Of a stretch of DNA of 64,000 nucleotides, positions 38 through 52,700 are shown piece after piece (the stretch's first letter is position 1; the number at the start of each line of letters is the position of its first letter). A program made the translations under genes and the position numbers. The DNA is from Euglena gracilis (taxonomy: Eukaryota): contig CP154954.1 in NCBI GenBank assembly GCA_039621445.1, positions 7,389,425 through 7,453,424 on the forward strand. The letters are read 5' to 3'. The notes beneath the pieces were generated by a model. It was not told where the DNA came from. It did no database searches and saw nothing but the letters and a program-made list of their open reading frames with translations.

Positions 38-2513
38 GTCAGTACAGGGATCTCAGGGAGGAAGGTTGTGGGGACCTGACCATTTCAGGGTGGGGGGGGG
101 GTTCTTGAGCGTGGCAGTTTCCAGTGGTGGGGTTGCCAGATGAGCAGCAGTTATCTTCCAGCCCTGTTCCCTCTGTCGAACCCTTGTCGAAAACTTGCAC
201 TCTTTACTGTCTGGAAGCAGGCAACTATTTAGGATTTTTGTTTACGATCAACGCATGAGCCGGCAAGAGCTACGCCAACACAACGGACCCCCGCCGCAGC
301 CTGCCCATAGCTCCGCCGTAACGTGCGGCGCCGCATGCACAGGACGAGGAGCAGCCCGAGGGCGAGCACGACGCCGACCACCACGGGGGCCACGACGACG
401 ACGGTCAAGTCCATGCACCGCGGGGGCGGCCCGGCGCGGTGCGGTGAGCAGGCACAAAAAGGGAGGGGCTGCTGGATTCGGGCAGGTGGAGAAGGGAAGA
501 GAAAGCAGCACTTTGTCCCTCGCGCGGCGCAAAAGCCCAGTGTCAGCGGTTTGTCTCCAGAAATTGCTCTTTACGGCGGTGAAGGGAATGATAACGGTGA
601 TGATCATCACAATGGTTACCTGAATCATTAGGACAAGCACAAAAGCCCGTGCTACCGCACAGGCCCTATTTTACTGACACAGGGTGGATGCACGGGACGG
701 AGCCGGATCCAAGCGCAGCAGCCCACGGTGTGTTTCGGATGCCAAACCGACCCCTACGCATGGAATCGCGTTGGCATTCGCCGACAGCGCGGGCGTAGGC
801 CGTTACATTGCTCCCGTTAGTAGGTGGGTAGACAATAGTAACAACAGTAATAATAGTAATAGACAATATAATACAAATGAGCAAATGGCAGGAAGCAATC
901 ATATCAATTTACTTGTTGCACAGTATCCTATTTCAAACCAAATAAAATGTACTTTTTCTGGTTTGTCCACCAAGAAAATACACTTCCTCTCGGTGGCTTT
1001 GATCAACATATTCCTATGAAGAATATCTATAATCCAGGTTTTGATGTAGGGCCAAATACAAGGAAATTTGTGACCGGGAGGAGGGGGAGGGCTGAAACCT
1101 AGGGGTGTATAATTCAGGGATTATTCGGGGGGAGGGTGCTCACTTGGGCACAATGAAAAGAACAGAAAAAAATCATCCAACCCAATCAAAATATACCCAG
1201 CCGGAATCCCTTATCACACTCCCCAACATCACACACCCTGCCTCCCTCGCATCAAGCAAAAAAATGAGCAAATATGGTTGCTGAGCGTTGGTTTGTGCAA
1301 AAAAATGACGTTACGCGCGTTTGTGCATACGTCAAGTGCGTGCGTGCATGCACGAGCCTATCTATGTCTATCTACGTATGTATTATAGCCTATGCATGCA
1401 TCTACTGGAAGCAGTGGCTGGGGGGTTATGGATACTGGGGAAGAAGTTGCCAGAGACAAGCATGACACCCCACTCCACGAGTCTGGAGAAGACTCACCAA
1501 ACACAACCATCACCAGGGGGGGTCAATAGACGCGACACAGAAAAAAAAAACGCAAATTGCTTTTGTATGCAAAATCCTTTAGGAGGTCCGGGATGCAAAA
1601 ATTTTCTCCTGGAGAGGACTGAGGTAAATTTGGCCAAAAGTTTGCCAATTTTTGTCATTTCTTGCATTTTGGTCAAATATTACATATTTTCATATAAATT
1701 GAAAATTTTTCTTTGCAAAAAAATGGAAAAATTTGACAAACTTTTGGGGAAAAAAAGCCAAGAAACAAAAAACAACAACAAAAAAGCAGACCCCCCCCCC
1801 CTGCCATCACCAGCCAAACCCCACGAGGGCGACGTGACGACGTGACGAGGCACCACCACCAAACACCCCAACCACGTCATGAACCAACCCACTGCAACCT
1901 CAAACTCTGCCAAGGACAACAGCCACAGGAAACATGACGAGGACCAACCCAGCAAGCAAAAGAAATCAGACAGGGGGAAGGGAATGCAGAGAATAAACTT
2001 GCAGCTGATATAAATACACTGGCCAGGCTGAAACTGACCAACCCCGAGGGGGAGGGGGTCTCGCAGACCCTGGAGTGCCCAAGTGGGCCAAAAAGTGCCC
2101 CAAAATGGCCCTTTCTGGGCTTTCGGCACCTTCAGCGCTGGAAGTGCCTTGGCCAAGTGCCCAGGCACTTTTGGCCGTGTGCCCTACCCTGCCACTGGGT
2201 CGGATCTGGGTGCCTTGAAGTGCCTGCCCAGGAGCCCCCCCCCCCCCCCAGGGTGCGGTCGGCACCGCCTTGAAATTCAGCCTGACACTGGCACAAAGCC
2301 ACCTGGAGGCGCCATCCAGGGCAGGCCCTGAAAACCTTCTGCTGGATAACCGGAACCAAGACAATGGAGAGAAGAAGACAAGCCAAAACAGGGATTTTTC
2401 AGGGTTTCGAGAAGTAAACCGCCGGGCCAGTTTGTTGGGGGCCACAGGTAAAAGGGACGTATATCACTTCCAGCAAAGCAGAGAACCAAGGAAGGGGGAC
2501 GAAGGCTGTACAT
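38..2513 (-). CDS. Duplicate copy of the same membrane-protein 5' exons; the gene continues off the left edge of the window
   Basis: Nearly identical to 25430-27911; the transmembrane exon is at ~305-440. Confidence 0.45.
2024..2284. mobile_element. hAT-like MITE (also at 27418-27676)
   Basis: Terminal inverted repeats CAGGCTGAA/TTCAGCCTG and a perfect 8-bp TSD ACACTGGC (2016-2023, 2285-2292). Confidence 0.85.
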
Positions 2514-2632
2514 AGGCAACTTAAAGGTTGCAATGCAAAGAAATTAAAGAAAAAAACTGCACAAAAATTTGAAACGAAAACCATCAAAAAAAGGTCACAC
2601 ACCGGAGAACTGATGTCTTTTATTTGCTCAAT

Positions 2633-2848
2633 CCCCCCCTGAATGGAAGCCGCCACCAGAATGGTGTCCCCCCCCCAAAAAACCCTCCCCCTTCAGATTT
2701 TGACCATTGGCCCGAATGGAAGCCCCCCCCCCCACACAGGCAGTGGACAAGGGAAGAAGAAAAAACACACCCTAAAAAGAAGCCCCCCCTCTCGTTTTTC
2801 GACCAATGGTCCCAATGGAAGCCCGGGGGGGCTTCTATTCAGGGGGGG
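2633..2848. mobile_element. Probable MITE remnant
   Basis: Inverted ends CCCCCCTGAATGGAAGCC / GGCTTCTATTCAGGGGGG with internal AATGGAAGCC repeats; no clear TSD. Confidence 0.5.
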
Positions 2849-3320
2849 TTTATTCTTTACATTATGTGGGCTTTGGGTCTCTCTCATTTTTGCATCTTCT
2901 TTGCGTTGTTTATTTTTGTGCTGACTTAAGCACCCAGGGGCTGCCTGCTGGGCAGAAGACACACAGGGAAATATTTTAACACAAAAAGGAAATAAAACAC
3001 AATGTTGGTTGGACCCCCCCCCTTCGCCCAACGACCAGCAGAAAAAAAAACGTTCAAAACATGCCTGCTGACTGGCCTGTTGACTCCGGCCAGGGAGGGG
3101 GGTCGTTAGACATGGGGAGGTCCTTAAACACAGACGGATACAAAGCTTCTTGCTTCTGAGCTTCCACTTGATTTCTTCTAGGTCATCTTAGGTCAAAAAA
3201 AGTTGGAAACCACACTTTTCAGAGGGTGTGTAAAAGATCCAAGAATGCTTGGAATAACAGCATTCAAATACAAGATTTGTCCTGCTGACGCAGGAAAACA
3301 ATACATGGTCACAAGGTCAA

Positions 3321-6300
3321 TTAAATGAGCTCCAAACTAGAGAACTGCCCACCGACCCCACGGTGCCCCAAACAGGAATTATTTGTTGGGGACGTTTGTA
3401 CAAACCCTGAAAGTTCAGCAACTGGTCTGGGTGAGGATACCGTCGAGACCCCGTAATGGGAAACGTTGGTACCCGAAAAGTCCAAAATTCTTACTGCAGA
3501 AAACAATCCCTGTTGTTGATGGGACTGGGCAGGGTTGGCATACAAGCCTGGCGAGTGGCTTGCGGAGTCTGCGAATAAGCCAAAGGAGGCACGGCGGGCC
3601 TCGCTCACTGCAGTCAGACAGGGCAGCAGTGGGTGGGTCGGTGGGGGGTGGGGGGTCCTGCGGCGGACGAGGTGCCGAGGCGGGATCTGCGCAAGGCGCA
3701 AGCCCCTCTGCCTGACCTCCTCGTCCCTGGGGCCGCGGACATGCACAAAGGTAGAGGCGGGGGGCGGGCGAGGGGGAGGGGAAGGCGAATACACAGGGCA
3801 CGCTGCAGGGCACGCATGACACAACGGCCTCAGGGCTCCCCCTCCGGCAAGCCGTCCTCAAAGCCTGCTTGGGGGAAGGTGAGTGGTCAGGGGCTTGTGG
3901 AGCGACGGCGCGCCTTCCATTCTCCGGAGCACAGGGGCAGGCCTTTCTGCCAAAAAAAAATGCAGAGAATCAGCCCCCCCCCCCCCGCTGTGTGGCCAGG
4001 AAACTCGACACGCACCGCCAGGCGAGGACCGGCCTGCGGCACGGTGGTGGTCAGGCAGAACTCGGTGTCCCGCGTCACGGCGGCGTCCGACTGGCTGAAC
4101 GGCGTGGCGTACGCCTTCCGCAGCTGCGGCCAGGCCCGTGAGTTTGCCCGGAACCGAGGGCCGCGGGGCTGTTCAACGTGGGCGTCCGTTGAGGAATCTC
4201 AACGTCGAAACCAAATTCCAAAAAAGGTTGTCCCCTTCGCAAGGCTGCTGCTTCCCAATCCCGGCCTGGGTGCTGCATCTCGTCCACGGTGTGCTCTGCT
4301 TCATACGCTGCCGATGGCAGAGGCGGGTCTGGCGCGATTGGGAGTCCCCTTCGGGACATGGAGGTGATGTTGAATATTGGGGGACTTGCACATACTGTAT
4401 GATGCCACGCCACTTACCACAGTTCCCCACTCATAAGATGAAACACCACAACAATGTAGCCACCCTGGCATTCCCAACTCCGAGAGCACACATAAATCAA
4501 CACAGATCAACACTGCTGCCCCAGTGTTGTAAGCCCCAGACCGAACCCTGAACATGAGGTTGGCCCGCTCCAGGTACCAGCGCTTCTCTGCCTGCTCCTG
4601 CACTGCGGAATAAGTGTTGCCCATCATGGCGATGAGCAGGTTGAGCAACAGGATGACTACCAATATGATGTACGGCGGCAGGGTGCTGACGGTGTTGGTA
4701 CGGTAGATAAACCAGCCAAAAAAAAAACTCAAATTTGGTGCCCTGCACCATTTGCTTTCATAACACTGATGGCCATTGCAGTACACACATCATTCCTTTC
4801 TTGGCTGCCCTCAACTCTTGGCAGCCCACTAGTTTTTGAAATATGCAGTGGGCAGTCGTGCTTGCGGGAGGGAAATTCCTTGGTGCTTGAAATTAAGTCT
4901 GGAATAATTTAATGAGAGATTAAGAGTACTTGGGACGAAGAAAAGATGCTTGGATGGTGCGCTCATACAAAGAGAAAAAAATAAAAAACTGGCGATTTGC
5001 GCAGAATGATACAATTTCACTTCATGTGGGAGGTCCACAATTAAATCGAAGGAATAGAGAAAGAGAGGAATAGAGATGCAAATAACAGCAACATCTTGCT
5101 TCTTCAAACTCAAAAATATGATATTTCTCTTTTAGAAATGGCAGCCTCAACTTGCCCCGGGGGGGGGGGGCGAGTAGAAGCTCCAGGGGGGGGGGGGTTG
5201 TGTGGCGGCCCCTAGGTCACACAATTGGGGATGCTGCTCGGGATAGGGCATACATTACACCCAGATTGATGTCTTTTTTTTGCAAGAAGTGTGGTACTGT
5301 TGTGTGTATTCATGTTGGTGAGTATACTTAAATGTGCAAAATGCAGCGATGCCTTCCTGGCAGCTGGTGGCCTGCTATTATAAGCATCAGTTCTGGGAGA
5401 TGCCTGTCTTCCAGGCACCACAATTTATAACAATGAACATTCTACTGCTTATCAATAACAGATGTCTGAAAAATGTTCCAGCAAATATCTCGTGGTTATG
5501 GGTCTATTCAAATTCGGAATGGGTTGGGGTTAGGATTGGGCGCACCAAAATTGGGCACCAGAGTTAAGCGGAAATTAGGCCCCCGATTGGAGAAGATTGA
5601 GCCGTGTTTGGGCAAATTGCGGGCATTCTTGCAAATTGCAGGCATTCTTCCTGAATTCCTAAAAGTTGGGTTTTCCGTCAATGTGTCCCCCCTTGCCCAG
5701 TCACCAATCTTGCCTCAGCAGCACCCCCTGGATCTCACGCAACTTTTCACTGGTCATCTTCCTGGCAGTAACCTTCCACGTGGCCCCCTTGGGGGTGGGG
5801 GCAAATAGAAACCCAGTCTGACCGTCCATGGTCCCGTGCGTCCCGGAAATCCCAAGGGATCCGGGGCAACCGTCGTCCTATTCAGAGGGGGGGGGGTGTG
5901 CTGGACGGCCCTCGGAAAAAATGCGCAAAAATGCGCAAAAAACCGCACAAAAAATGAGCTGAGTTTGTGACATTCCCAAGGGAAAAAGTATTTGGAAAAA
6001 AATTTAACAATAAGCCCAAAATTAAACCAAAATCACCAAAAACAGCTGAAATGAAGGCATTTTGGCCAAAAAAAAAATGCACGAGCACGGCGTCACTCTC
6101 TGTTCACCATAACCAACAATGTCAGCCATGGTGCCCCTTATTTGCGACCAGGGGAGTGGGATTCGATGTGGGGTCTCTGAAAACCCGAGTGTCCTCATCA
6201 TCATTGGATGAGTACCCACACCTCATCAAGGTTTCTTTCTTGAGTGTCCCTTGGGTGAAAAAAAAGTGCGTAAATGGGTTCGTTATTTATAGAAATGGGT

Positions 6301-9300
6301 TAGTTGGACGTGGGCAAAATTCGGTGAGCATGTGGTTTGATTGATGTTGAAGAACGGTGTTGAAGAACACCAATGTCAAGTTTGTTTTGACATGTGGACA
6401 ATGTGGACAACATGGACAATACGGACAAAATGCCTCCAAAAAAGTGTAAAAAAAAAGTGGGAAAATGGAAAAAATGTGCAAAAAATGCGCAAAAATGCGC
6501 ATTTTGAAAAAATTGACGAAAATGCGCAAAAAATGTGCAAAAATGCGCAAAAATTTTCAGTGCATTCCCCCCCCCTCTGTCCTATTTGGGGAGGATTTGC
6601 GCTTATTGTTCTGGGGTGCAAAAGTGTTTCCTGTATGGGCTGGAGGTGCATACTTAATGGTTGGGCGTATACAAAAAATGGTTGTTTTTGGGGAAAAAAA
6701 CCAGCAGCGGACACCTGCTCGAGATGACGAGCAGGTTGATGAGGAGCATGCGGCCCCCGCTGAACCGCTCGCTGTAGGTCTCGAAGGGGAAATCGCCCAC
6801 CAGCCCCAACAGCACAAACTGCCATTGGCAAGGGTGGGGCAGAGGGAGTGGGATTGGCAAGGGTGTGGGAGGCAAAACGATCTGCCCTTCTTTGCGTTGC
6901 CGAAAACGCGGACTTAGTTCTGCAGCTGGCATGCTGGCTCAAAGGTTTGCCCCGGCAAGAGATGGTGACTTCATTCCAGGCAGTCCCTTTTCTGAGAACT
7001 TCTTTTGACCTCTATTGAAAAAATATCACCATTGCACCAGGTATACGAGTCTCCTTAATAAACACATGGGCAAAAAGATGAGTTCCCCCAAAAAAGGGTG
7101 ATAGCTACAAATCAACTTCAAACTAAGTCCCCAACAATAGCTAAACCATGTCAAACCATGCAGAAATCTCCGAGAAGGGGGGTGGGGTCGTTGGACATTG
7201 GGACATTGGGAGGCCCACCGCTGGGCAGAGGTGTTCCACGAAAGAATCCACGCCGCAGTGCTCTGTGTCGGCCGTCAGCATGTAGAGAGACATCGTGAAG
7301 CCGAGCAGCACCGTGAGGTTGACGCAGAGGAACACCTTCACGTCGCCGCCTGGCCCGGGGGGGGGGGGGGCGTCCGCCGCCGGGAATGCAACCACCGGGG
7401 TCAACCCCTGCCCGGAGGCAGTGGTGGCGGTGAGCAGGCAGCACGAGGCGGGTCACCACTCAAACGTGCAATTAGAATGGTCACCCCTGCCAGTTGATGG
7501 AATGAGAAGAAACCTTGTGTGAATTTTGCGGGGAAATATCCCGAAATATGGTCCCTACGTGGCCGCAAAGCGTTGGGAACTAAAAACAACCTTTGGCAGA
7601 CGTTTTAGGGCAATCTGAATAATTTCTGCACCACCTCGAGAAATGGGTGGGCAGCTGCCACCACACAACTTCCTGGCGCCGTGAACTCGAGCACAAAGGG
7701 GTGCCCGGGTGGGCAGGCACCGAGCAGGATAAAAGAAAAACTGTCCAGGGTTGCTTCTGTTCTCCGAACCTGTGCTAAGTTTACAGGAAACCGTGAACGT
7801 TCATTTCATCAAGTCGCAACGTGGGGTCGACCCACCACCCACCGACCCACCCACCCACCCAAAACACACCCAAAATGGACCAAAAAAAAACATTTCAGAA
7901 ACTCAGCCCCCCCCCCCCCCTCTTGGGAGAGTCCTGCCAGTATTTGGTGAATATATCGTTTCAACATCTCCCTGGTCATTGGCCTGGGATGTGTTGGCCC
8001 TACCAGGCCAGGGGCAAACTTTGTTGGGGGGGATTGACTCCTTCTGGAAACTGGAAAGCGAGGGGAAAGGCAATGAGCCGAGGGGCACTTGCACTGGCGC
8101 ACTGAACAGAAACAACCACTGCTCGGCCAATTGTCTCTGCCATTGATACAATGCTGTCCCTATTTCCGTGCAAACAGAGCATAGACCTTCAAATGGTTCT
8201 TTTCCCGTTTCCTTGACATAAATATACCGGATGAAGCAGATGAACTTCCTCGGTATACGATCACAGTCATGAATCAAATCGATTGCATCTGCAGTGGCTC
8301 CCCAAATGCCGTTCGCCCCCCCCCCCCTTATGTCCAACCACCAGTGATCTCTGTCCTCCGACCGAGGGGGGGGGGTGGTCGTTGTACATAGGGTTCTGAC
8401 CAAAACGGTGTCCTCCGACTGGGTCGTTAGACACAGAGGGTGGTTGGACACAGAAGGGGGTGTGGAAAACAACACCTGAAAACCCCCAAGGACATCCAGG
8501 CCAGCCCGTACTGCAGCATCTCCTTGATCATGATGACAAAGGGCCCCGTGGACCGAAAGCCAAGCAATGACAGACCTGTCTCAAGCACTTGTTTTGCTGG
8601 AATATGATGCTGGGTATGGATGTGCATCCTAGAGGTAAAAATGCTTCTGTTTCGAACTTGATTTAGGAGAAAAATATTCACGAAATTGAGCGACCATTGC
8701 TTTCCGCAATACAAAATATCAGAGCAATGAGAGCAACAAGGACAAAAAAAGGTCAATGCAAGCAACAAAAATCGACCAACTGATATGATTTTTTTTCAGG
8801 CATATATTTCTCATTTGGCAGAAGACAAAATGCTGAGTCCACTTGACTGCATGCACTTGTGTGCAATTTCAGAAAGAGGAAACCAGCCCTGTGCAGGAAG
8901 AAGAACACATGCAGCCAACCTGTGAGGGCGGCGAAGGAGGCCGCCACGTCCACTAGCACAGGCAGATCTGCGAGTCGAGCACAGAGGGCCGACGGCAGTA
9001 GAGTCTATTTTGTGTGGAAGCAGCGTAGAAGCCATTTTGGCCAAAAAAATAATGACATTTGCCTGGGGACACACACACACACACACACACACACAGAGAG
9101 AGAGAGTGAGAGAGAGAGAGAGAGACATGCACACGTGCGCGCGCACACACACACACACACATGCACACGTGCACAAGCACCCACACACACATAGGTGGAT
9201 CAATAACTTGTGCAGGCGGCATGGGGCCTTGGTTGGGCATCGCTCATTTCCCCAACCTCCTTGTCTCTCTAAGCCCCCCCGTATTTTACCAATCTTTTCA

Positions 9301-12300
9301 AAGGTCATCTTCCCGGGAAGCACTTCAGGTGAATTGTCATGCCAGGAAACAAAAGGTACAATAAAAATTGGCGGTATTTGAAATGCTAAATTAGATGTTC
9401 AGTATACATGAATGTCGTATTTGTAGCAATGGAAACAATAACATGGAACCCTGCCAACAATAAAAAACATGGAACCCTGCCCCACACACACTCACTCACC
9501 ATCCATTTCATTGCGAGGTTCACAACAATGCAGCGCCTCTGACCGGAGGGCCACGGAGGACAGGAACAAGAAAAACAAAACACATTGCCCAGCGTCGCCT
9601 CGACGGCCGCCGCCCCATGCGCCTCATAGACTGGGAGGGGTGCGCATGGGGAGGGGGCAAGGACAACCAAGAGTGCCAAACAGAAAAATATATGATAGCG
9701 TAAGTATAAATGATGACAAAACCACAAGAGGAGCACAGACGGACATGGCAGTGACACACACCATTTCCCCTATGTACAGTAGGGAAACGAAATTGTGGGA
9801 CAGCTGAGAATTTTGTGGGTCATACCCAACCCCCAGCTCCAAAACCTCTGCCAGCCCATGGGATGTGGTGATGGTGTGTGCACACTGGCATGGCCCTGCC
9901 CCACGCAGCAGTGCCCCAGCCAGCTCTGCTGCAGCACGCTGTGCAAAAGTCAGGCCAACCCTATGCGAGCAGGTCGTTTCCATTTTCTGACCCCTTTTGG
10001 ACTGCGAAGCAAACCCAGCCTCGGGAAAGGGGACGAGGCGGCTCACACTGCAGTGAGTGGCATTGGCCCCTAACTTTGAATAATGCAAGTTAGCAACCCC
10101 TGGCCTCGACATGCCGACTAGTTTGGGCTAAAAAATTGGGGTCAGAAAATAGAAAATACCTGCTAACATAGGGTTGGCCTGAATTTTGCACAGCGTGATG
10201 CAGCAGAGCTGGCTGGGGCACTGCTGCGTGGGGCAGGGCCATGCCAGTGTGCACACACCATCACCACATCCCATGGGCTGGCAGAGGCTTTGGAGCTGGG
10301 GTTGGTTATGACCCACAAAATTCTCAGGTGTCCCACTATTTAGTTTCCCTACTGTAGAATGAAGAAATAATTTCCAGTTTATTTCCGAAAAAACAATGTG
10401 CATGCCTGCGAATGCTTACACACATACAAATAAATTGCCTGCCAGCCTGCCAGCATTCAGAGCAGCACACGCATAAAAAATGTGAAAGATACATACACTT
10501 TGGAAAAATTGGATAATAACCACCATTTTCCCACATGAATCAGGAAAAACCACAGGAAAAAAAATACTTTAACTGTTAGTCCGTCAGTCAATTCATTTAG
10601 GCTCTGCTCTATGAAATCTTTCAAAAAAAATGAGTATGGGCCGGAGGAACACATCTGCAGCGCAGCCCTGAACCGCATACCTCACAGATTGATGCTCAAA
10701 TGGGAGGGTAAGCACCAATTGCGAACCACCCACACCAGGCTCCTTCCCTGGGGGGCGGAGGGCTGGACTCAACACACCCAAAAAAAGGTCATTTGCAATT
10801 ATCATACAATGTCGAAATATTGAACAATCAACTGTGCCTTCGCCAAATGGTCAAAGATGATGCTGCTTTATCAGCTTTTCTTGCGTTGCACAAATTCGAT
10901 CACCATCGACACCGTGAAAAACATTGTCAAAAAAGGTGTGTCCATCAAATGCAGAGAACGAGCGTGGGTCACACATCCAGAGAACGAGCACTCAATTCAC
11001 TGAGCAAAATCTCCGTACCCACACAAGAAACTTAAGTTGGATTGGGGCTGGCTGGCTGGGCTTGTAGCACCCCCCTCCCGGTGGGTGCTACTGGAGCACG
11101 ACTGGGTGGAACTTTGGCATGGCGGCAGCAGCCCCCATCCTGCGGGGTGTCTGCAAGCCTCACATATACCAACCACGCATTTTCATGGAAAGGTGGAAGC
11201 CTGATCCACACAGCCCTCCACCCCACTGACAGGAGAACCAACAGCTCCAGTGCCTGCACTGCGAGGGCGACCGGGTGGCCCTGCACCACGCCAGAAGCAC
11301 TGCAGCGGTGGTTGTTGGAGCACAGCAGGCAGCCAGTGTTGTCATACCCACCACGTTTTTGCATTCTTAGGTTTCCAAGACAGGTGTACACATCCAGCTG
11401 CATGGATACGTAATACCATCCAATTCCAACTCCATGGCAAATTTCCCTCAGTGCACCTCCCATTTTCCCCCAACATGAGCAAATTTAGCCCAAAATGGAT
11501 CATTTCTCGAAGAAAAAAATGTAATATACTCCAAATTTTTCTGATAGTGAGGGGGTTTACAGGTGGGCGGTGAAATGAAACCCCCTGGGGGGCTTGCATT
11601 TGTGGTTTGTGGATCATTTGTTTATCTAAACACGTAATACGGTCAAAGAGAACCCAATTGGATGAAAATTATGAATTGAATTGAATGCAGAAGCCATTGT
11701 AAATAATCTGCTATTCTCGAGGAACCTTAGAAGACCAAGAAAGCTTTGGTTTACTTCCGGAAGATGTCAGGGTCGCAATGAAAAAGAGAAGAGCCACAAA
11801 GCAAAAAGAAAAGGGGGCCTTTGAACCCGACGCCCTTTGGCCCATCCCAGGCTTTTAATTGTGGACCTGCCCCCCAGGAAGTTATCGCCCAAAGCAAGCA
11901 CACAAACCTCAGTGATAAATACCCGTATGGACTTGGGATGATTTTCCAAAATGGAAAATCATGTGATGGGCTCAAAAAATGACAACTTCAGCAGGGTAAA
12001 TGACAATTTGAGGCGGGGGGCAACTTCCCCGGGGGGTCAAATTGGAGGAGGGGGGGGGGCTGAGTTGTAGGGCAGCCCCTGGGTGGGCAGGATGCTGGCG
12101 GCGGTCCAGGCCAGCACAGTGCCGAGGGCCACCGCCAGCTTCCGGTAGAACATCCGCTGCCCGAACGCGTCCCACTTCTTGTCCAGCACCTGCCGCACCT
12201 CCGCGCTGACCACGAGGTCCAGCCGTGGCGCGTGGTGCCCAAGGGCGGCGCCATTCTGCACAGGCCCATCAACGCACTCCCACCAGGCACACAACGCCCA

Positions 12301-15300
12301 GGCACACATGGATAAGGCTAAAAGAATATGCACAATACCCGACACAGAAATATATTCCACATAAAAATTGTCTGGGAGGATATCTCCCCAAAATGAGAAA
12401 TCACATGCGTGGTTTATCAGCTAGCATCTTTAGTTGGCAAATATGACAACCATTTGGTTTCCAACTTTCAAGATGGAAAACAGAACAAAAAGTACTTCCA
12501 ATTTTTTTTTCGATCTTAAGTTGAAAACTCAAGTTGAGTTCAATGTGCAACAGAAATTGGCATGTAAAATATCTATCAACTGCGTCATTCATATCCAGTA
12601 AAAAATGTGGGATCCTTCCAACCTGACCTCAGAAAATAAATTGGACATAATATCCTGGGGACGTACTCGCCAGCACTGCAACTGTGACCGTTTTTGGCAT
12701 AATTTCCACTTTTTCCCTCAAAAAAGGAGATAATGAACACCTCTCCTTTTCCCTCAGAAAAGGAGAGGTGCAATTGTTCATATAAATACATATGAACAAT
12801 TACACCGAGCTGTGGCAGGAAATAACGAAAGCGATCTCTGGGTTGAAACTCTCAGTGCCATTTTGAAAAACAGAAAAAATAGAAAAACTAATTCAATGTG
12901 GGTAAACCCTCCCCCCAAAATATAACCCCCCAAAAACAACCCCCCCAAAATATTCCGACATCAGGATCGGAGTTACAACCCCCCAAAACAACACAAAAGG
13001 AGGGGTTTTTGGACTTGTTGCGACCTACACAGACAAGATTTTTGGTTTCGCAGAGACTGGAACGAAATTTTTTTCACGAGGAAAAAAACATGCTGAATAA
13101 TATGCTTAAAACTAAAGGAAAATGGCATTTATTCACTCCCCAGGGCACAGGGCTGGAAGAGAACTTTTTACTGCATCCCAAAAAAAGTCGCAATAATATT
13201 TCTGTGCTATACCTCCCATCCCTGGACTTCGAGCAGAAAAATAATGCCCTAGGGGTGATTTGGGGGTGGGGGCTTATCCCCTGCCTATATCCAACAACCA
13301 GTTTTAACAACATCTGTACGCCAACAGGGGGAGGTCGCTGTCCTCCGACTGGGGGTCTGTCGTCACAGAGGTTTTTTTTTTGGTACAAAGAAACACTCCT
13401 GCGGACTTTCCAAAATGCCGAATAATCCTTCGACCTGGGGGCGGGATATTCGTTGGACATAGGGGGAAAACTCCAGAGGAAAATTCGTTTTGAGACCTCT
13501 TGAAACCATGCAACGATCAAAAAACTCATCAGGATCCAACAGCAAAGGAAAGACAAAGGCCCCCTGGGGGACCACGGCACCTGCTCCACTTCTCGAGGTA
13601 CTCGGTTGTCCACCAGTTTCAGGCAATTTGTGACAAAGCAGGCCAGCCTGAGATGGACCGCCGAACACCATGGGACTTCCAAAGTTCTTCCAAAGTTCAG
13701 AAGTTTTGTACGATTCTCAAGGGTTAAAAGATAACAAAAAGTGTGAACAATTGGGCCCCTCATGGGGGCCAGGTAGCTTTCCCGTGGGAGGGGGGGGTCG
13801 ACTTTCCCAGATGCACTGCACTCTGGGTATCGGATTATTTTTCGTTTTGTTTGGCACTTTACGGCTGCCACACAGAATACATACATATTTGGTACAGTCG
13901 TGCAATGCCCCCCCAGTCCAAGTGTGCATTTTACATCATCAATTTTGAGGTATGGGCTCAGGCTCAGGCAGTCAGGAACAGACGGAGAGCCGGATGGCTT
14001 TGCAGGCCTGGGCAGGGATCCGAGCCCCGGCGCACATACAATCGATGGCAGTTTTGACGGCCTCTCCAGAGTTGGGGTCGATGGATGGCTGCTCAAGGCC
14101 GCACAGGGGGAACAGCTTGCACGTGATGGGAGCAGGCGTGGGGGCCAACGTTCTACAGGAGCTTGCTTCTTCGACTTGAAAGACCATCCCAAAAATGGAT
14201 TTCGATTTTTTTTAAAAGACAAACAACGAAAGGGGATAGACAGAACATGAAAAAAATCCGATAAGTGGTGCAGAAATCTGGTTCTACATTTTTTTTCTCG
14301 ACAACGTAGGTTTTAGTGTCCGCCTTTCGATTAATATTTATAACGTGTTTTCACGGCTTTACGCATTACCTGCTTCAAAGGGGGTGGGTCGGAGGTTCAG
14401 GGGAGGCGAACCCTGTAGAAATGTCCTGAAAAAAACCCTGTAGCTAACCCATTGAGTAATGCCATACAAACCAGCTAGATCTTGTAGAACAAAGTTACGC
14501 ATTGCAAAAACGCAATACATTAGTAATGCGCCAAAATATGGGTTAAAAGAATGTATTCTTTCAAATTCAAATTGCATCACAATTAGGGGTGTAAACTGCC
14601 TGAGTGGGGCCATAATCCCAGGCGATCACCGAGTACTTCGCCAGGATGTGTTGTGAAGCAGCCAACACGAAATACCCCAGCAATCAGCCGAAGGCGTAAA
14701 ATCTTGACTCTTCCATGCACAGTGAAGCGTTGGAGGAAAAAATGCTCAATTTGCAGGGAAAAAGGCGGTGTGGATGGCTAGGGACTTTGAAGCAGTTGCT
14801 ATAAATGAACAGAATCCAAAACTGCACCTTTAAATTGGAGGGGGTGCTATCGTTAGCAATCACTGGCAAACAAATCCTTTAGCTCCCCCCCCCTTGTCTA
14901 AGAACCAGAAAAGATAGATAAGAACCAGGGGGGGTGGCTTAATTTGCCAAAATATGGGTAAGATCCGGGTGGTGGCATGAAACAAGGAGGAAAACTATGA
15001 CTGCAAAGAATCCGGTGCCTCATGCTGAAAAGGAAAAAAAAACATTCTTGGTTTGGAGGTCCACTGTTGAACATACAGGTATTTGGATGCAAAAACCAAT
15101 AATATTTCACCAAATCAGGCTGCAGAAATCGCGAAATTATCGAGGCATTTGTCTTGAAAGTGCACACAAAATAAGCTTCCCTAATAAGATGACCTTTAAA
15201 AAAGTGGTTAAGAACCGGAGGGGGGGGGTGCTTCCCCAGGTGAAAGGGGTACGATCTGGGGACTGGGGGAGCATGCGGATATTCCAACCAAAACAGCGAA

Positions 15301-21958: not shown

Positions 21959-21971
21959 NNNNNNNNNNNNN
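21959..21971. other. Assembly gap (13 N)
   Basis: Run of n characters. Confidence 1.
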
Positions 21972-21997
21972 GGGCAGGGGGCATGGTGCCCACCCAC

Positions 21998-27911: not shown

Positions 27912-27943
27912 AGGCAACTTAAAGGTTGCAATGCAAAGAAATT

Positions 27944-28003
27944 AAAAAAAAAAAAAAAACAAAAAAAAAAAAAAAAAAAAAAAAAAAGAAAAAAAGAAAA
28001 AAA
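27944..28003 (-). repeat. Poly-A tract (poly-T on the coding strand), expanded relative to the duplicate at ~2545
   Basis: About 60 nt, almost pure A, just upstream of the candidate AG and ATG at 27911. Confidence 0.9.
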
Positions 28004-34574: not shown

Positions 34575-34637
<63 letters not shown>

Positions 34638-43600: not shown

Positions 43601-46600
43601 TTCCTGGCTTAATAGCTTATTCCTCGTCTGTTGTGATCGGTCATCATCCCAACGCACATTAGCATAGCAACCCTGTTCATAATCAGTGACTTTACAGCAC
43701 ACGTTTGGAGCCCACTGTTTTGAAAGGAATAACACCCTCAGCCATATTGCCCCCCAGGGGGATGAGGTGAGGTTCTGTTTCCAAGGCCCAACCACAACCC
43801 TTCAACCCCGGGGTCGAATCTCAGCTAAAGGTCACTGAGAACGTTTTGTCAGGCATTTGTCGTTGTGAAGTAAGCACTTCCCATCGGAGAGGGCGGGGGA
43901 TAACCCCATTGGGGACCTTTGAAATGGAGGGCTTTGGCCTCACAACTGGCATGTTGTCTCCGCGTTGAGCAGCTCCGGGTGACGGTCCAGCAGCCATCGC
44001 ACCAGCTCTACGTCCTGGTCAGGGCTTTGCTGCATGGGTTGGAGAGGGGTTTGTTCAATCCTCAGTTGGAGGGGGGGATATTGTGGCCCATGCGGGGGCC
44101 AACCCCCACCTGCGGCGCAATCAGGAGTTTTCTTGAGGACCCTTGGGGGGTCCACCCCGTGGGCCGGCTGGAAAAAGGTGCTGGCTGGACCCCTCCCCCT
44201 AAAGAGTGTGGGGGTCCAGCTGGCTGGGAACAACAGCTGGACCCGGCGGGTACACCCCCCAAAAAATATATAAAAAAAATGCCAAAAAAGCCCAAACCCA
44301 GCCAGCTGCGTTGGCATTTCTCAGCCAAAATCTTGAGATGAAAACCCCAAAAAAAAACCACCCCAAAAAGTCAGTTTTAGCCATTTTTGACCCCTTTTCA
44401 AAATTTTATGGTCCAGCCTGGCTTCGCCAGGTTGGCCCGAACTTTATTTCAGTGGACCCCCCTCGGGGGGGGGGGGGTCCGATTCCCGCCAGGGAGGTGT
44501 GGCTGGTAAAAAGGTGCTGGCTGGACCCCCCCCCCCCGGAGGTTTGGGTCCCCTCAGGCTTAAGAGAACCCCTGGGCGCAATAACCAGCAATTCTGCAGC
44601 CACCAGCTGAACCACCTGATAACTCCCAACAGGCGGCTCGGGGGGGGGGTCAACTGGTTTTTGGCTGACCGCCAGGGAGGGGGGGGGGGGGGTGCCCAAA
44701 ATGGACCAAAATGCGGTTTTAAGCACATTTTGAGCAAGAACCCCCAAAATCAAAATTTTTGTCTGGACTCCCTTAAAATGTGGGGGAGGGTCCAACATCC
44801 CTGGTCTGAGGTGCGCCCCAAACCCCGAGTCACCCTCCTCGAATGGAACACTGCTCCCCCTTCTCCGGGAAAGGCCTGATCCTGGTGGATGATGGCGATG
44901 TGCAAGATGTTCTCCCCCGTGTATTCCCCTTCTTACATACACAGATGTCTGGGGCAGAATGACTTGGTGTGACAAAACGCTGCTTCCGTTCTCATCAATC
45001 TTCCAAGGGCCTACACAAAACAAAAACAGACCCCACCACACAACAAACTTGCACATGGTTCGACCAAGGCCCATAAACACGCCCACAGCAGCCCACCCCC
45101 AACCCGCCCGCCCACAGCCACATTCGGGGAATATATTTCTCTCGGCATTGGCACTCAGTTATATGTCATACTTTTCCATACCATCCTGATTGCCAGTTTA
45201 GGGTAGCACTCCACAAGCATCTTGCCGATGTCAGTCTGCCGGTACAGAAAAGCGATGTGGATTGGATTGGCTCCGACCGCATCAGACAGCAGGGGTCCAT
45301 TGTTTTTATCCAAACAGACCCAAAACCCAACCGTGAGAGACTTCGGAATAATAATAAAAATACCATTTCCGATGCACAAATACCCCAGCACGACTTGACT
45401 TCCAGCGTTCCAGCGTTCTGGGGCACAGGGACAGGAAACCGGTTGAAAGACGAAGAATCAATCAAGGGCCAAAGTGGTCAGAGTGGGGGAGGGAAGACTC
45501 GAACAAACTTTCCCGGATTTGAAAACTATGGGTTTCGGGGTATTAGGAAATGCACACTTTAAAACAAGGAAGGTTGGATCAGGTGGCGGTCCATTTGAAT
45601 CCATTTTGGTCCTGGAGGGCCTGGACCGCCCCTTCCCCGCCGTCCCCTTCTCCGGTCCTGAGCCCCTGGGCGGTGTGGCGCAGGACGGAGGGGTCCTGGG
45701 CCGCCAGCTGCCGCACCGCCTCCTGCCGGCCCTCCTTGATAGCCCGGAAGATCCCCGCGCCGGCAGGCTGGGGGGGGGGCATCCAGTGAGTTATTGGGGG
45801 GTATGAATTGGAACAATTACAATCAAAAGCAGCCAGCACACCGTAAGCACAGGTTCCAGCTGACATTTTTATTCCCCTTTGGCATATTGTCGTGTGAGGA
45901 GTTTATTTGGGTCCCTAGTACCTAGTACCGACTTAATTGTCACGTGATGGTTTCCTGGTGGGGTGGAAAATCAATCCAAACGTCAAGAGTGGCACAGGCA
46001 CAGTGGCGAGTGGCACAGGCACCTCTGCGCCACTCGCCTCCGGGAGGCCACAGGCGTCGGATTGCCCAGCAAAGTGCCCCCCAGCTGAGTTCCAGCAACG
46101 TTGGGCTGCCAAACCACCTTTGCCAACTTAGGGGTGGGCAATTTTCAATTGTCGGATGAACAGGACCATTAAATTAGGTCAGAATTATTTTTAAAAACTG
46201 CATTTAACAATTTGCTTTTTGGAAAAATGATCAATGATTTTGGGTACGCCCAAATAATTTTGCAGGCAATAGGGCCAAAAGATCGGTCTACTAACTTTGC
46301 AGACATTTTGAATGGATTTTTGTGCTTACCACCTCCTGAGTTCCCACAAAAAGATGCAGCATTCCACATGCTTTTCCTTCTGTCTGAAGGGGAGGGGGAT
46401 TATTATTATTATGGGGCCTTTCTTTTGAGCCGCAATATTTTTCAGCCTTCCCTCCGGCATGTTATTCGGGCACGCAAAGTTTGAGGGTATTGCAAAATTA
46501 TTTGGGAGGCAGGGTTTACAGAACGGTAGAAAACAGGCGTGGCACTTTGAATCCAAGTGATGAAGGCCTTGCTATTTGCAAGGAGGCGGAAGCAAACATC

Positions 46601-47070: not shown

Positions 47071-47617
47071 TGGTCAGTCAGTTCAAATAAAGTTTTGTGT
47101 TCATTCAAAATGAAGGAACACAGTGGAACAGGGCAAACACCTTGTGCTGTGGGACAGCCTCCCACAGCAGGCACCCTCCCAGGGGGCCCAGTGATCATTC
47201 CCTTGACCATTCCCATTCCCATTCCCTTCGGTCCCAAGCTCCTTCGGCGGTGGGGGGGGTGACACTGGTTGCGCTGGGGTGTCCTTTGGCACTGCCCAGC
47301 CAAACCCCGCCCGCCAGGGGGGGTCGAAAATGCCCAACCACCTGCCTGCCCACAGCACCAACCCCTCAGAGAGCGAACCTCCTTAAAAATAAAGAAGAAG
47401 CCGACCCAACCACCCCCAACCCACCCACCCACACTCAAATACCCACGCACCGGGGAGGTCACGCGGTGTTAAATGCATCCGTGGTCAAAATGCTTCTGCC
47501 TTTCCCCCTTCTGGGCCTTGCTGCCCAAGGCCCCCACCCAGGCATCCATCTTGGGCAGAGCAGGTCTGCCAGGGTTGCGGGGCCCTCCGATTGGGCAGAA
47601 GGGCAGTTGCAAGGCTC

Positions 47618-47621
<4 letters not shown>

Positions 47622-47670
<49 letters not shown>

Positions 47671-47690
47671 GCGCATGCACATGCACACAC
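47622..47690. repeat. (CA)n microsatellite
   Basis: Directly visible; another lies at ~58395-58470. Confidence 0.95.
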
Positions 47691-49083
47691 AAAAATCCAT
47701 CCTTTAAATGGGCACTAGATGAGTGAAAGCTACAAAGAAACTTCGAGGAAGGGCAAGCTGGAGAACCTTGGGCCGCGGAGCAGGGACGCGGCGGCCCGGA
47801 ACAGCAGGCGCCCGGTGAACCCCGGGAGCGGGGTGGATTCGCGTGGGTGGACAAAATGGGAACCTGTGCGCCGCAGGGGTGCCCAGATCTCATGTGCACG
47901 GGCGCGCCACAACCCCGGTGGGCATGTGTGCTCGTCCCAGCGGTGTTGCGGCGGTGTGTGGCGGTTCGTTGCGGCGGTGCACCAGGGCAAACATCCTTTC
48001 GATACCCGGTACGTGTATCCCCTTTCCGGCGCCACCCCCCGGCTGGGCGGTCCTTCTCGGCCGTCTGAGCCCCACGCCTGTTTGGCGCGACGACGGTGGA
48101 CGGCAGGTCCCCTGGCTGCGGCTGCAACGCCACCGCAGTGGCAGGCCCCGGCCCTGGGAGGGATTTCGGTGGGACCCCATCCCGGTCAATTGACTTCGAA
48201 GGTTGGCTGGGCTCACAAGAGATAGAGGTTCGGCGTTTGAATATATTACCCTGACCCACAACACAAAAGAGCACCCGAAACCTGAACGGAATACCCGCCA
48301 TTATTGGCATAAAAATATACACCTCTATAATAAGCACAATAAGAATGAAAAATAAGAATAAAATGCCACTAAACGTAAATGCCCTTTAAGACCGCGACGT
48401 GTACTTTTGTACATGTACTTTTGAAAGCTGTTTGTGTTGACTCCAATAGACGCAAAAGGTGCGACTATTTATGGTACCCAAATGTGTAACAGACGCACGA
48501 TAACCCATGTCCCAATTTAAGAGGAAAGAACGCTTCCTAAAGAGCTCCTTGGGTTGTTGACGGAAAGTCACCAAAAACTGTTCTTGGTGGGAATTCACAA
48601 GGAAACTGATAATAAATAAATGATAATCCTGAAAAATGGAGGCTTGCCGCGGCCTGCCAGCTCCCCTTTGACTCTGTCAAGTACAGGTCTGCTGGTGCAG
48701 TATCCATGTCAGTGCTGGGATGGCCGGATGGCTCAGCGGCAGAGGGCACAAGAACCTCGCGATGAACCGACCCGAATCATCCCCCCCCCCCAGCAACAGG
48801 AAGCATATCTGCCGAAAACTTTATTCAGAAAACGTCCTTGTCCTGCTGCCGCTTCCCTTGGATGGGCACTCTTTAGGAACATATCTTCGACGCACACTGG
48901 AAATGCTGCGATTGGCGTTTTGCCCACACGAAGAAACTGAGCCTTTTGTTTTCATTCTTTGTCCAATTAATGCTCTTCAGATCCCAATGTTTCCATACAA
49001 GCTGCATACAGCCGCATCATAACCCAAACACCAACCCATAAGCATAAAATTAGCTTTAAAAAATAGTATATACAATGTTATTT

Positions 49084-49763
49084 GGCAGCCCGAAACTACT
49101 GCCCCCCCCCCCGGGGGGGCCCAGTAGTTAATCCGGGGGGTCAAGGTAATTTTTTTGCGTTAATGATGGAATAGGGTTAGGTGCGCGACTTAGGCTTAGG
49201 GTTAGGCCTAACTTGTACACCGAACACCCGTCTATAAGTTAGGCCTAACCCTAACCCTAAGTCGCGCATCTAACCCTATTCCATCATTAACACGAAAAAA
49301 CTATTTTGACCCCCCGGATTAACTACTGGGCCCCGGGGGGGGCAGTAGTTTCGGGCAGGGTTCGATATAAGGACAGGTGGGGGGGGTCCGGACCCCCCCC
49401 TGCGGGCCAGGAGGGGGGGGGGTGGGGGGGACACCCCCCCCCACCTAAACAGGTGCGCGGTCAGGGTGGCCGAAAATTTTTGACCCCCCAAAACGACCAA
49501 AAGTGCCATTTTGGGCACTTTTTGGGCAAAAATGTGCCAAAAATGCAAAAAAATTTCGTCGCAAAGCGCCGGAGGAAAAAATTGACCCTTTTTGGGGGGG
49601 TCAATTTTTGCCCCCGAGGGTCGGTCCGGACCCCCCTTGCAGGTGGGGGGGGGGTGGTCCGGACCCCCCCTGCGGGCCAGGAGGGGGGGGGGGGGGGGGG
49701 GGGACACCCCCCCACCTAAACCATGTACGCCCTCCTTATATCGAACCCTGGTTTCGGGCTGCC
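49084..49763. mobile_element. Foldback MITE with TTAGGG-like repeats in its arms; hosts the nested insertion
   Basis: Inverted arms of about 130 bp starting GGCAGCCCGAAACTACTG; flanks TGTTATTT / TGTTGTTT form an 8-bp TSD with one mismatch. Confidence 0.85.
49356..49750. mobile_element. hAT-like MITE nested in another element
   Basis: Perfect 17-bp TIR CAGGGTTCGATATAAGG and a perfect 8-bp TSD GTTTCGGG (49348-49355, 49751-49758). Confidence 0.92.
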
Positions 49764-52700
49764 TGTTGTTTATCACAAAATAATATAAATAATATATTTT
49801 ACAACAAATTAATAAATAATTTCAGCGTTTTCACTGCATCCACATTATGAGTCAGTTTTGGGGTTAGGGTTTAAACAAAAATCGAAAAAGCTTCAAAAAT
49901 GCAACGGAGCATATATGTTATAAAGATCCGCAGCCCCTAAATTTTTGTGAAAGGTGACTGGCGACAAAAAAGGGTATTTTTGGCACTTTGCAGATTTTGC
50001 AGCAATATTTCAAAAAGAGCACCATTTGTCCGTTGCACCTTGCAATATTTGGGACCCTCTGGTGCCTCGGGGTAGGTTCAAGACCGCCACCGGCTTCTGG
50101 CAAGGCGGAGGGAGTGAAAGGCGCAAGCATGGCAGCACCCACCGTGGCACCACCCTCTCCCAGAAAAGGCAGTCCCCCACCAGTGCCCTGGACACCCTCC
50201 TTGTGTCGAATCCAGGAGAGGGACCCAGGACAACCGACTTCTCAGTCACGCCCTTCCTCCCCGGGAGCAGCGCCATGGGCGGCGGCGGTGGGGCGAGTGC
50301 CCCCGTCGAGGCGGTGCGTTCCGCGGCGCCGTCGGGCGGCGGGGGGGCGGGGACGGCACCGGCCTCGAGTGCGGCGGTGCCGGGCGGGTCCCGGGGGCGG
50401 GGGGCGGCGCAGGGGGAATTGGGAATGGGCGGGGAGCGATGCGGGCGCCAGGGAGGAGGCCAAACGGGCGTCAGTGGTGAATCTTTGTGTTGGCCACCAT
50501 CTTATAGGCTGCAAGGAGTTAAACTTATTGGAAAACACTGCACCTTTTCAAAAAAAAAGATGCCCTTTTCTAATACCTCTGTAAGGAAGTTTCACACACA
50601 TGACATTTGCAAACGACAACTTCCATTCTGCCACGTTCAAAGGATTCAGCAATGGCAATAAATGCATTTTATATTTTGGCAAAATGGGTGATACGAACAA
50701 TACTCTGCAATGCTTATCAAATATTGCATATTGCACATCAAATATTCCCATATTTTCCCATCTGATATTAGACCGCACTGCCCCAGTCAGGGGATGTCGC
50801 TACAACGTCAGGCATGTCACAGGGCTCATCTCGTTCACCTGGGGGTGAAGGCTCCGATGCAAGATCGGGCTCTACTTGGATCCGCAGCCAACAACACCGC
50901 GGGAGAGGTTGGGAAGGTGCATGGTGGGCAGGTCGACCATTTCAGCGGGGGGGGGGGGGGTCGTGTGATGGTGGGTTTTCATTAAAAAAAAAATGGATGG
51001 GTCATTATATGAACCATGATTCAAGGCCTGCTGTGCGGTTTGCCCCCAGGCTCGACCCAGCATTTTTCGGCTCCCTTCTTTGCCTGGAAGCAATGGCAGG
51101 ATAGACATCAGACCGTCCTTCTTTGCTTCATTGCGTCCCAGATTACACGTACTATGAATGGAAGAACAGAGAAAGATGCTGCTTTGGAGATGGCCAAAAA
51201 GTCGCCCACACTTTTTGGGGGACTTTGTCCCACGCTGAGGTGTAAGACGACGACCTCGGTGGGGTAAAGTGGCCTTGATCAAGGTGCTCTGCACCTCAAA
51301 TACAATTGGACGATTCAGGGAAACATTTATTTCCCGCAACAAAATTAGTTTCCCCTGCCCAACTGTGGACCTCAGGGCTGACCCTTGGAGCTCCCTACCC
51401 TGGTGGTGAGGGTCCAGCAGCCCACAAGCTCACTTTTGTTTGCTTTGTGATGCTGAGAAAAGATAATGAGCACAATAATAACCTTCAACGGAAGCACTGC
51501 AAAACTCACCACCAACTAATAAGCCCCTTATCGACTGAAGCCCCCTCCCAATAAACCCCTGCTCCTTGGACCAACAAACTAAAGCACAAACCCCTCCTGC
51601 TGGCAAAAAGAATTGACGGCGTCTGGTTGTGGCAGTTGTAGAGCCAGAAAACATAATATTCAAGCCTTTTTTTTTAGTTCACCAAGGGTAATTATTATTG
51701 GGGAAAATATCATTCTTGGCAAACACTTCCAAAATTCATGCTGTGCACAATATTTTGGATCACACTGGGGGGTCGGATTGACAAAGAATTAATTGACCTA
51801 CAAAACACCCCACCTGCCAACCCCCGACAAGCCCAAACAGATGCTTCTAACCTCAATGTAGGGGGGGTGGGTAAGTGAAAAAAAAAAGTGGAAGCATGAC
51901 GGCTGCATTGCGTGAGAGGCTTCACCAGCCTGGGCTCCCACTGCGGCAAATGAGGCAGTCTCTGTCGTTGGCTGGTCGAGCCGAAGGGGAGGAGTGGGAT
52001 GGCGGGAGGAGGAGCGTGGGCTACAGGCCTTGGTCCCCGTCCCACAAAACTGATCATTTGGGGTCAGGAATTGAAATTTCTTGGGCGCCCTCTTGGAGGA
52101 AGATTTGTCCCCCCCCCCTCTAAGGGGTCCAAGAAAGGGGGTCTGAGGGGAGGGGGTCTAGGGGTGGTGGGTCCTGCCGTCTGCCAGGCTGGGCCTGGGT
52201 GGCACCCGAAATCAGCAAAATCCAGTTGGGTTGGATTTACAGCCAAATCTTAAAATTTTGACGAAAAACGCTTGAAAAAGCCCTCAAAACACACCACTTT
52301 GCCCATTTTTTGACCCCAAAAATATTCAAAATATATCAATATATATATATATATGTGTGTGTGGGTGTGTGTGTATGTATATGTATGTGTACATATATAT
52401 GTATGTATATATACATATGTATATGTATATCTTTCTATATATATTCAAAATATTCAAAATATATCAGCACTTTGCACTGTAAATTGTTCCTGTCTAGCCG
52501 GCTGCTAAAACTGCATTTCCACTGGCCGCTGTGCGGGGGGTCCGCAGCCCAGCTTGGAACTGATCACCAAAAAAAAGTGCTGGCTGGCTGGAACCCCCCC
52601 AGTAGTTGGGTGGGGTCCAGATAGACGACCTTTCTGTCAAAATGAGAAACAAGCGGAGAAAAAGAAAATGACCCCAAAAAACATCAGTGACACATGCCAC

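Follow-up and report, generated by a model that had tools for sequence, protein, structure and literature searches.

Free CAG...CTG elements with 8-bp target-site duplications as a candidate source of nonconventional introns in Euglena gracilis

MITEs, or miniature inverted-repeat transposable elements, of the hAT type (Ac/Ds, hobo, Tol2) have an 8-bp target-site duplication (TSD), short terminal inverted repeats (TIRs) beginning with CAG, subterminal motifs and non-coding bodies. Elements resembling these were compared in this study with the nonconventional introns of a channel gene of Euglena gracilis, both found in the same 64,000 nucleotides of DNA (assembly GCA_039621445.1, contig CP154954.1, positions 7,389,425 to 7,453,424 of the forward strand). 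This whole stretch is referred to as the window, and all positions are given within it. The origin and the removal of nonconventional introns in euglenids have been debated since the 1990s, and an origin from MITEs has been proposed repeatedly.

The proposal of a MITE-like origin was made in PMC3935182, which noted that no transposable element was known from euglenids at that time, and it is repeated in PMC6221363, PMC12621601, PMC11170887 and PMC12501133. The review PMC11282704 calls the CAG/CTG motif a TIR and the repeats at the junctions 'TSD-like', so the statement in the first-pass annotation of the window that a transposon origin had already been suggested in general terms is concordant with the literature. 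Knock-in mutagenesis in E. gracilis (PMC12501133) demonstrated a requirement for the CAG-CTG motif and for a 5' spacer of 3 nt, with 5 nt preferred at the 3' side and a purine preferred as the first base of the downstream exon; entirely synthetic introns of 50 bp that were designed by these rules and contain 12 complementary bases are spliced. Motif and spacers together are necessary for splicing and, when a stem and a purine are present, suffice for it. The same study reported direct repeats at the junctions of 84.4% of E. agilis introns, and such 'slidable' introns were excluded from its motif analysis. A nonconventional gapC intron present in only one strain of E. agilis has eight-nucleotide direct repeats at its junctions (PMC4770533), and this strain-specific intron gives independent support for an 8-bp duplication at intron birth. 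Full-text searches brought up no paper that adds the 3-nt and 5-nt spacers to the length of a TSD (supplements may hold tables of repeat lengths), nor one on free MITEs of euglenids that end in CAG...CTG and have TSDs of 8 bp, or on their superfamily. The idea is mostly anticipated in print, and what is new is the 3 + 5 = 8 arithmetic and the free MITEs, both contributed by the first-pass annotation, and a test that is specific to the register of the repeats.

The window was scanned on structure alone, for CAG...CTG pairs no more than 700 nt apart with perfect 8-mers, not of low complexity, immediately outside them. Five matches were obtained, four of which are independent (M1, the paralogous copy of M1, M2, M3 and M4), and in all five the TIRs matched at 11-18 of 20 positions. 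The mean number of matches in 200 first-order Markov simulations was 0.295, with a maximum of 2. Five matches against about 0.3 in simulation indicate that the association of CAG...CTG ends with 8-bp duplications is real and well beyond chance. A control with displaced registers gave up to 4 matches per register. The matches in displaced registers or with other triplets were rejected as microsatellites, as double counts caused by a duplication, or as pairs whose TIRs score no better than random (4-9 of 20), and one palindromic element was the sole exception.

M1 (2024-2284, 261 bp) reads CAGGCTGAA...TTCAGCCTG, has a perfect 9-nt TIR, CAGGCTGAA, and is flanked by a perfect 8-bp TSD, ACACTGGC (2016-2023 and 2285-2292). 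It is intergenic and its surroundings are barely transcribed, with a depth of 0.15 and 4.8 on the flanks compared with 43.8 on the multicopy element itself. The window contains two copies of a segment of about 22 kb (9-21958 and 25401-47415), 94-99% identical (98.9% in the first 2.5 kb), and the paralogous copy of M1 (27418-27676), which has an identical TSD, lies in the second of them and is not an independent insertion. M1 and all 16 introns described below are present twice in the window because of this duplication, and they were counted once. M2 (24269-24732, 464 bp) reads CAGGGTTCGATATAAGG...CCTTATATCAAACCCTG, with the TIR CAGGGTTCGATATAAGG matching at 16/17 positions, the TSD GCCGTTAT and an interior rich in G/C runs. 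M3 (49356-49750, 395 bp) has a perfect TIR of 18 nt and the TSD GTTTCGGG, and M2 and M3 are two insertions, at different sites, of one family with the TIR CAGGGTTCGATATAAGG. As the first-pass annotation had claimed, direct reading of the sequence showed that M1, M2 and M3 start with CAG, end with CTG and have perfect 8-bp TSDs. M4 (44122-44574, 453 bp), which had not been listed there, begins CAGGAGTTTTCTTGAGG, ends CTTAAGAGAACCCCTG and has the perfect TSD GGCGCAAT; its copy in the first 22-kb unit (18636-19071) is flanked by GGTGCAAT and GGCGCAAT, identical at 7/8 positions. A fifth element, M5 (5883-6579, 697 bp), reads CAGAGGGGG...CCCCTCTG; it carries a 13-nt CAGAGGGGGGGGG TIR and subterminal repeats of the AAAATGCGCA type, and has a very high depth in the contigs of RNA runs, as a multicopy element would.

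Elements were also found nested in elements: M3 is inserted in the right terminal repeat of an outer foldback element (49084-49763), which has arms of 113 nt that are 89% complementary, GGCAGCCCGAAAC termini and a flank repeat, TGTTATTT/TGTTGTTT, identical at 7/8 positions. The 17-nt TIR of M2 and M3 was also searched for in metagenomes, where 23 loci had one match each; BLAST extended these no further than a seed of 17-20 nt, and they were dropped as chance matches.

With lengths of 261-697 bp, non-coding bodies, TIRs of 9-18 nt and perfect 8-bp TSDs in four independent elements, these sequences have the features by which MITEs are recognised. Many copies of M1 and M5 are indicated by depth and by the fact that single positions are covered by several contigs of the RNA runs. 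In minimum-energy RNA folds the CAG paired with the CTG in all six elements (seven copies folded) on both strands. On the basis of these folds, the six elements are predicted to carry, in either orientation, the cis-code that was experimentally defined in PMC12501133.

The likeness to hAT MITEs extends to the 8-bp TSD, the CAGGG/CAGAG starts of the TIRs, the subterminal repeats and the bodies of 0.26-0.7 kb. The TSD is exactly 8 bp in the four of four independent elements with perfect repeats, and 7 bp in M5. The hAT TIR consensus YARNG is fitted by M2 and M3 (CAGGG), M4 (CAGGA/CAGGG) and M5 (CAGAG), and is not fitted by M1 (CAGGC). The four TSDs do not fit the hAT target consensus nTnnnnAn, as T is present at position 2 in 1/4 and A at position 7 in 2/4. 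Among 20 long open reading frames (ORFs) of the window, Pfam gave neither a hAT transposase nor a BED finger or dimerisation domain. It is the 8-bp TSD and the CAG-type termini that make hAT a candidate superfamily; P, Merlin and some Mutator elements also have 8-bp TSDs.

The introns examined all belong to one gene, the part of which that was seen (4124-19560, minus strand) encodes an Ion_trans/TRP-like cation channel in 17 or more exons, one of them a micro-exon of 16 nt. After splicing, its minus strand is an open frame that by eye suggests ankyrin-like repeats, followed by channel helices; exon 4553-4672 alone matches the end of Pfam Ion_trans (PF00520) with an E value of 4.2e-05. Twenty public sequencing runs match parts of the window, and X1-X19 match 7-17% of the sampled words, as the exons of a gene would. 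The RNA evidence, which covers positions 1-20000, consists of contigs of X1, X2 and X3 (three studies, guessed to be RNA) and raw RNA-seq reads of X21. The 16 introns were drawn from the 15 joints listed out of 35. Thirteen joints were clean, each with at least one raw read of X21; contigs of all three other runs were present at 12 of these 13, and those of two runs (X1 and X3) at 11315->12084. For the joint 4672->6721 the support was a single contig, from a single run, in which one letter differs. One further joint, seen in contigs of three runs, had 16 intervening letters that correspond to the micro-exon 16563-16578, and it was therefore split into two introns (iA and iB). The reading frame implies a further intron within 16767-17238, which was excluded from the count of 16. 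At 4553-4645 and 12080-12225, many raw reads (8-20 each) run from exon edges into sequence absent from 1-20000, a sign that the channel gene has expressed paralogs at other places in the genome, next to different exons.

Intron geometry was scored over all junction placements compatible with the RNA. GT/GC-AG borders were possible in 0/16 introns at any such placement. An exact CAG at +4 to +6 and an exact CTG at -8 to -6 were observed in 9/16, and the spacing of 3 nt before the first triplet and 5 nt after the second was observed in 14/16, so that the first-pass description of introns with 3 nt before a CAG and 5 nt after a CTG was borne out by the RNA-defined junctions. The nine introns with exact triplets are i1 (4125-4270; flanking 8-mers identical at 6/8), i2 (4312-4552; 2/8), i14 (4674-6720; 2/8, the intron supported by the single contig with one differing letter), i5 (10730-11205; flanks ACCCACAC and ATCCACAC, 7/8, with a TIR score of 11 of 20), i9 (14127-14604; 4/8), iB (16579-16766), i11 (17239-17728; a perfect 8-nt TIR, CAGGGACC), i12 (17771-18465) and i13 (18529-19386; 6/8, and 7/8 in its copy in the second 22-kb unit, with a TIR score of 12-13 of 20). 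Three introns have other complementary triplets in the same geometry, namely i4 (9626-10690; CTG/CAG, 2/8), i7 (12227-13578; GTG/CAC) and iA (15976-16562; CAA/TTG, at one compatible placement); one has a wobble pair (i3, 6823-7225; CAG/TTG, 5/8) and one a mismatch (i10, 14653-15850; CCG/CTG). The CAG and CTG are present at a different spacing in i6 (11316-12083) and i8 (13634-14012). All these introns are on the minus strand. Read on the plus strand they are 5 nt-CAG...CTG-3 nt, which is 3 nt/5 nt in the sense of the gene, as expected from the strand on which the reading frame lies. Within i4 lies a palindromic element of about 610 bp (9758-10368, and 35229-35844 in the other copy), with arms of 164 nt that are 95% complementary and contain CAGTAGGGAAAC...GTTTCCCTACTG; no clear flank repeat was found at 9758-10368.

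In their borders, the placement of CAG and CTG, the pairing of their ends and their junction repeats, the 16 introns are alike to those described in PMC12501133, PMC3935182 and PMC4770533, and they are textbook euglenid nonconventional introns. A pyrimidine followed by a purine (Y|R) was present at most junctions (9 and 11 of 14). What is added here to the described introns is the presence of adjacent free elements with exact 8-bp TSDs and of junction repeats in the register of a TSD.

The junction repeats were quantified by comparing, in each intron, two 8-mers anchored outside the CAG and CTG: one joins the last 5 nt of the exon to the first 3 of the intron, the other the last 5 nt of the intron to the first 3 of the next exon. 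Shuffled pairings of the junction 8-mers served as the control. For all 16 introns, 54/128 positions matched, compared with a shuffled mean of 37.9 (sd 4.4), and 42 of 110,357 permutations reached 54. The 14 introns with 3+5 geometry had 49/112 matches compared with 34.2 (36 of 110,231 permutations), and the nine with exact CAG/CTG had 34/72 compared with 21.9 (54 of 109,917). When the two cut positions, which carry the Y|R consensus, were removed from the full set, 36/96 matches were left compared with 25.8, and 947 of 110,577 permutations reached this value. Register 0 gave 54 matches, while the 16 other registers from -8 to +8 gave 27-42. Identity was raised at 7/8 flank positions (5-10 of 16 introns), and it was 1-4 of 16 just inside the element and approximately 3-6 of 16 beyond the flank. 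The comparison against shuffled junctions proposed in the first-pass annotation, run here on 16 introns, therefore found an excess beyond the Y|R cut positions and in register 0 only, and it does not refute the proposal made there.

Junctions or flank identity might be an artefact of alignment ambiguity, paralogous reads or assembly error, given that three of the four runs were only guessed to be RNA, that many loose ends point to paralogs, and that the window holds a gap of 13 N (21959-21971) and two near-identical 22-kb copies. Such an artefact is highly improbable, as flank identity is read from the genomic sequence itself, with the CAG and CTG as anchors, and is independent of any choice made by an aligner. 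Furthermore, the joints recur in 3-4 runs of 3-4 studies, including raw RNA-seq reads, and they yield an open reading frame with an Ion_trans match.

When the structural scan was relaxed to 7/8 identity of the flanks, five pairs with a TIR score of at least 11 of 20 were recovered. Four of these were i5, the paralog of i5, the paralog of i13 and the copy of M4 in the first 22-kb unit. The emergence of i5 and i13 from a scan for MITEs means that young-looking introns and MITEs are inseparable by anatomy, and i5 would appear structurally indistinguishable from a MITE. The eight-nucleotide repeats of the gapC intron were read by the authors of PMC4770533, by analogy with Daphnia, as the result of break repair. 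According to this explanation, a staggered double-strand break is repaired with the capture of filler DNA, the repeats are fill-in rather than TSDs, and the free MITEs are unrelated to the introns. It shares with the present case the short direct repeats at new introns, and it is in agreement with the finding that the intron bodies are unrelated to one another and to the MITEs. Break repair predicts, however, repeats of variable length with no fixed tie to an internal CAG...CTG, whereas the repeats here abut the CAG and CTG in a single register, and free elements with the same ends have repeats of exactly 8 bp in 4/4 independent perfect cases. Repeat length and register fixed to the internal termini are expected of a transposase, and break repair is regarded as unlikely.

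Descent of the nonconventional introns from CAG...CTG elements with 8-bp TSDs, with excision from the RNA at -3/+5 undoing the insertion, is considered probable. The MITEs would be non-autonomous cut-and-paste DNA transposons, with CAG...CTG ends set within inverted repeats of 9-18 nt, whose insertion would duplicate an 8-bp target. The introns of the channel gene share this architecture of an 8-nt flank, CAG, body, CTG and 8-nt flank, and their RNA is cut 3 nt before the CAG and 5 nt after the CTG. Excision of 3 nt, the element and 5 nt takes out the element and the equivalent of one TSD, so the sequence that preceded insertion is restored. As the reverse complement of CAG...CTG is again CAG...CTG, scarless removal holds for either orientation of insertion. 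The stem of an intron would be its retained TIR, maintained by selection for splicing, and the direct repeats at the junctions would be decaying TSDs, the intronic halves of which would be free to drift. The anatomy of M1-M4, taken together with the rules established in PMC12501133, implies that an exonic insertion should lose 3 nt and 5 nt of its TSD copies and leave one intact 8-mer; this expectation is derived from published experiments combined with the anatomy seen here.

Three independent agreements within the window, namely the terminal triplets, the sum of the spacers equal to the TSD length, and flank identity in register, are fitted by this origin, as are two published results. These agreements could also be a coincidence or convergence: CAG...CTG ends and 8-bp TSDs might simply be common in DNA transposons, and the introns might use CAG and CTG for RNA structure and owe their repeats to another cause. 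The sample is of four independent elements and 16 introns of one gene, half of the introns lack flank identity, and the splicing code tolerates variants such as CGG-CCG, as described in PMC12501133. Coincidence would nevertheless need the three agreements to arise independently, with flank identity only in the register of the TSD, and a recent intron with 8-nt repeats has been published (PMC4770533); it is judged rather unlikely.

The relationship might also run in the reverse direction, with the MITE-like elements being mobilised introns, for example circular intron RNA copied back into DNA. The release of nonconventional introns as circular RNAs is reported in the review PMC11282704. An excised RNA keeps its spacers, however, so that its copies would read NNN-CAG...CTG-NNNNN, whereas M1-M4 start at the CAG beside a fresh 8-bp duplication. 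Substrates of transposases, in addition, typically carry long perfect TIRs, such as the 18 nt of M3, and subterminal repeats. The reverse direction is consequently held to be very unlikely, and from the anatomy of the MITEs, the geometry of the introns and the register-specific identity of their flanks we infer that the introns descend from elements of this kind, possibly of a hAT-like superfamily.

Several observations weigh against a descent of the introns from these elements. M5, which the first-pass annotation had called similar to the other three elements, does have ends of the CAG...CTG type and a 13-nt TIR, but its flank repeat is of 7 bp (TCCTATT) and it scores 3/8 in the strict 8-bp register. 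Two introns, i6 and i8, have spacer sums of 9 and 7, respectively. The eighth flank position was at background (4 of 16), and the flank signal was contributed by a minority of introns (i5 with 7/8, i1 and i13 with 6/8, i3 with 5/8), while 8/16 had only 1-2 of 8 matches. Part of the RNA reads derive from paralogs elsewhere, as the loose ends show. No MITE was seen in an exon and spliced: M1 is situated in a near-silent stretch, and M4 and M5 are nested in introns (i13 and i14, respectively; the perfect TSD of M4 is in the copy of i13 in the second unit) and are removed along with them. The suggestion that each insertion is a ready-made, scarless intron is supported with respect to the match between 3+5 and the TSD length and to flank identity in register, but no MITE was caught acting as an intron. 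Introns with the body of a multicopy MITE, which the first-pass annotation had proposed to look for, were not matched within the window. No intron body in the 64 kb resembles a MITE or another intron beyond its own paralog and matches in G/C runs or of low information, and a window of this size does not exclude such families genome-wide. No Pfam transposase was found among 20 long stop-to-stop ORFs of the window, a portion of what the six frames contain.

When the two 22-kb copies were compared with each other, no element or intron proved to be present in one and missing from the other, and hence no empty site was seen, which likewise weighs against this descent. Each copy carries the whole channel gene, and the second (25401-47415) retains all 16 introns and their anchors. 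The duplication is absent from the account given in the first-pass annotation. The 13-N scaffold gap is exactly at the end of the similarity between the copies, and for this reason a tandem paralog is not distinguishable from an assembly join of diverged copies. Within aligned blocks the copies differ only by indels of up to 18 bp. Indels of 6, 7, 8, 9 and 10 bp accounted for 4, 1, 5, 2 and 1 cases, respectively, a slight bump at 8; the 8-bp cases are at 32445-32452, 27701-27708, 29845-29852, 45420-45427 and 20399-20406. At 32445 an extra ACTTCTAA adjoins ACTTCATT, which resembles the footprint of a transposon excision. The indels of 8 bp could be such footprints, although they are too few and too weak to be used as evidence. 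A run of approximately 60 A (27944-28003) is present in the second copy only.

Other features of the window were also recorded. The segment 306-472 is an exon with loose ends of RNA-seq reads at both sides, and the letters past 472 are GAAAAAAAATT, which we take to resemble, in reverse complement, the 3' end of the Euglena spliced leader. This likeness would place the 5' end of a second gene on the minus strand here, downstream of the channel gene. The strongest 3-base periodicity of the window was observed at 56401-57421, which has 61% G+C and long ORFs that overlap between the two strands; the two longest ORFs of this segment matched no Pfam family. No Rfam family reached its gathering score in the window.

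Introners are the other described case in which transposons make introns. As summarised in the review PMC11282704, they occur in Micromonas, Aureococcus, dinoflagellates and others, and consist of an element with short TIRs and a TSD whose removal restores the exon, as is proposed for the elements of the window. Introners are removed by the spliceosome with GT/AG-type sites that are carried or co-opted, and the TSD, of 3 nt in Micromonas, supplies part of the splice signal. Here, in contrast, removal would be nonconventional and non-spliceosomal, the cuts fall inside both copies of the TSD (3+5), and orientation should not matter. Introners are defined by multicopy families of introns, none of which was found within the 64 kb. 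Judged from its anatomy, the system would work like introners, with removal by means other than the spliceosome.

The broader statement, that euglenid nonconventional splicing corresponds to the geometry with which one kind of DNA transposon (CAG...CTG ends, 8-bp TSD) inserts, such that any exonic insertion in either orientation would be an instant scarless intron, is regarded as evenly poised. If 3 + 5 = 8 holds true, a vague hypothesis on intron origin would become quantitative, with sharp predictions. Young introns would be expected to have exactly 8 identical flank positions and empty sites a single 8-mer; splicing would be independent of orientation, and a duplicated flank of 7 or 9 nt would result in a frameshift. 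The relationship would also single out particular MITE families, whose TIRs would in turn lead to the autonomous transposon. It would represent a second case in which transposons make introns at the scale of a genome, by a different mechanism and without the spliceosome, and would explain why nonconventional introns dominate the genes of euglenids and continue to be gained. The excision machinery would then be a device of the host, or one derived from a transposon, by which transposition is undone in the RNA.

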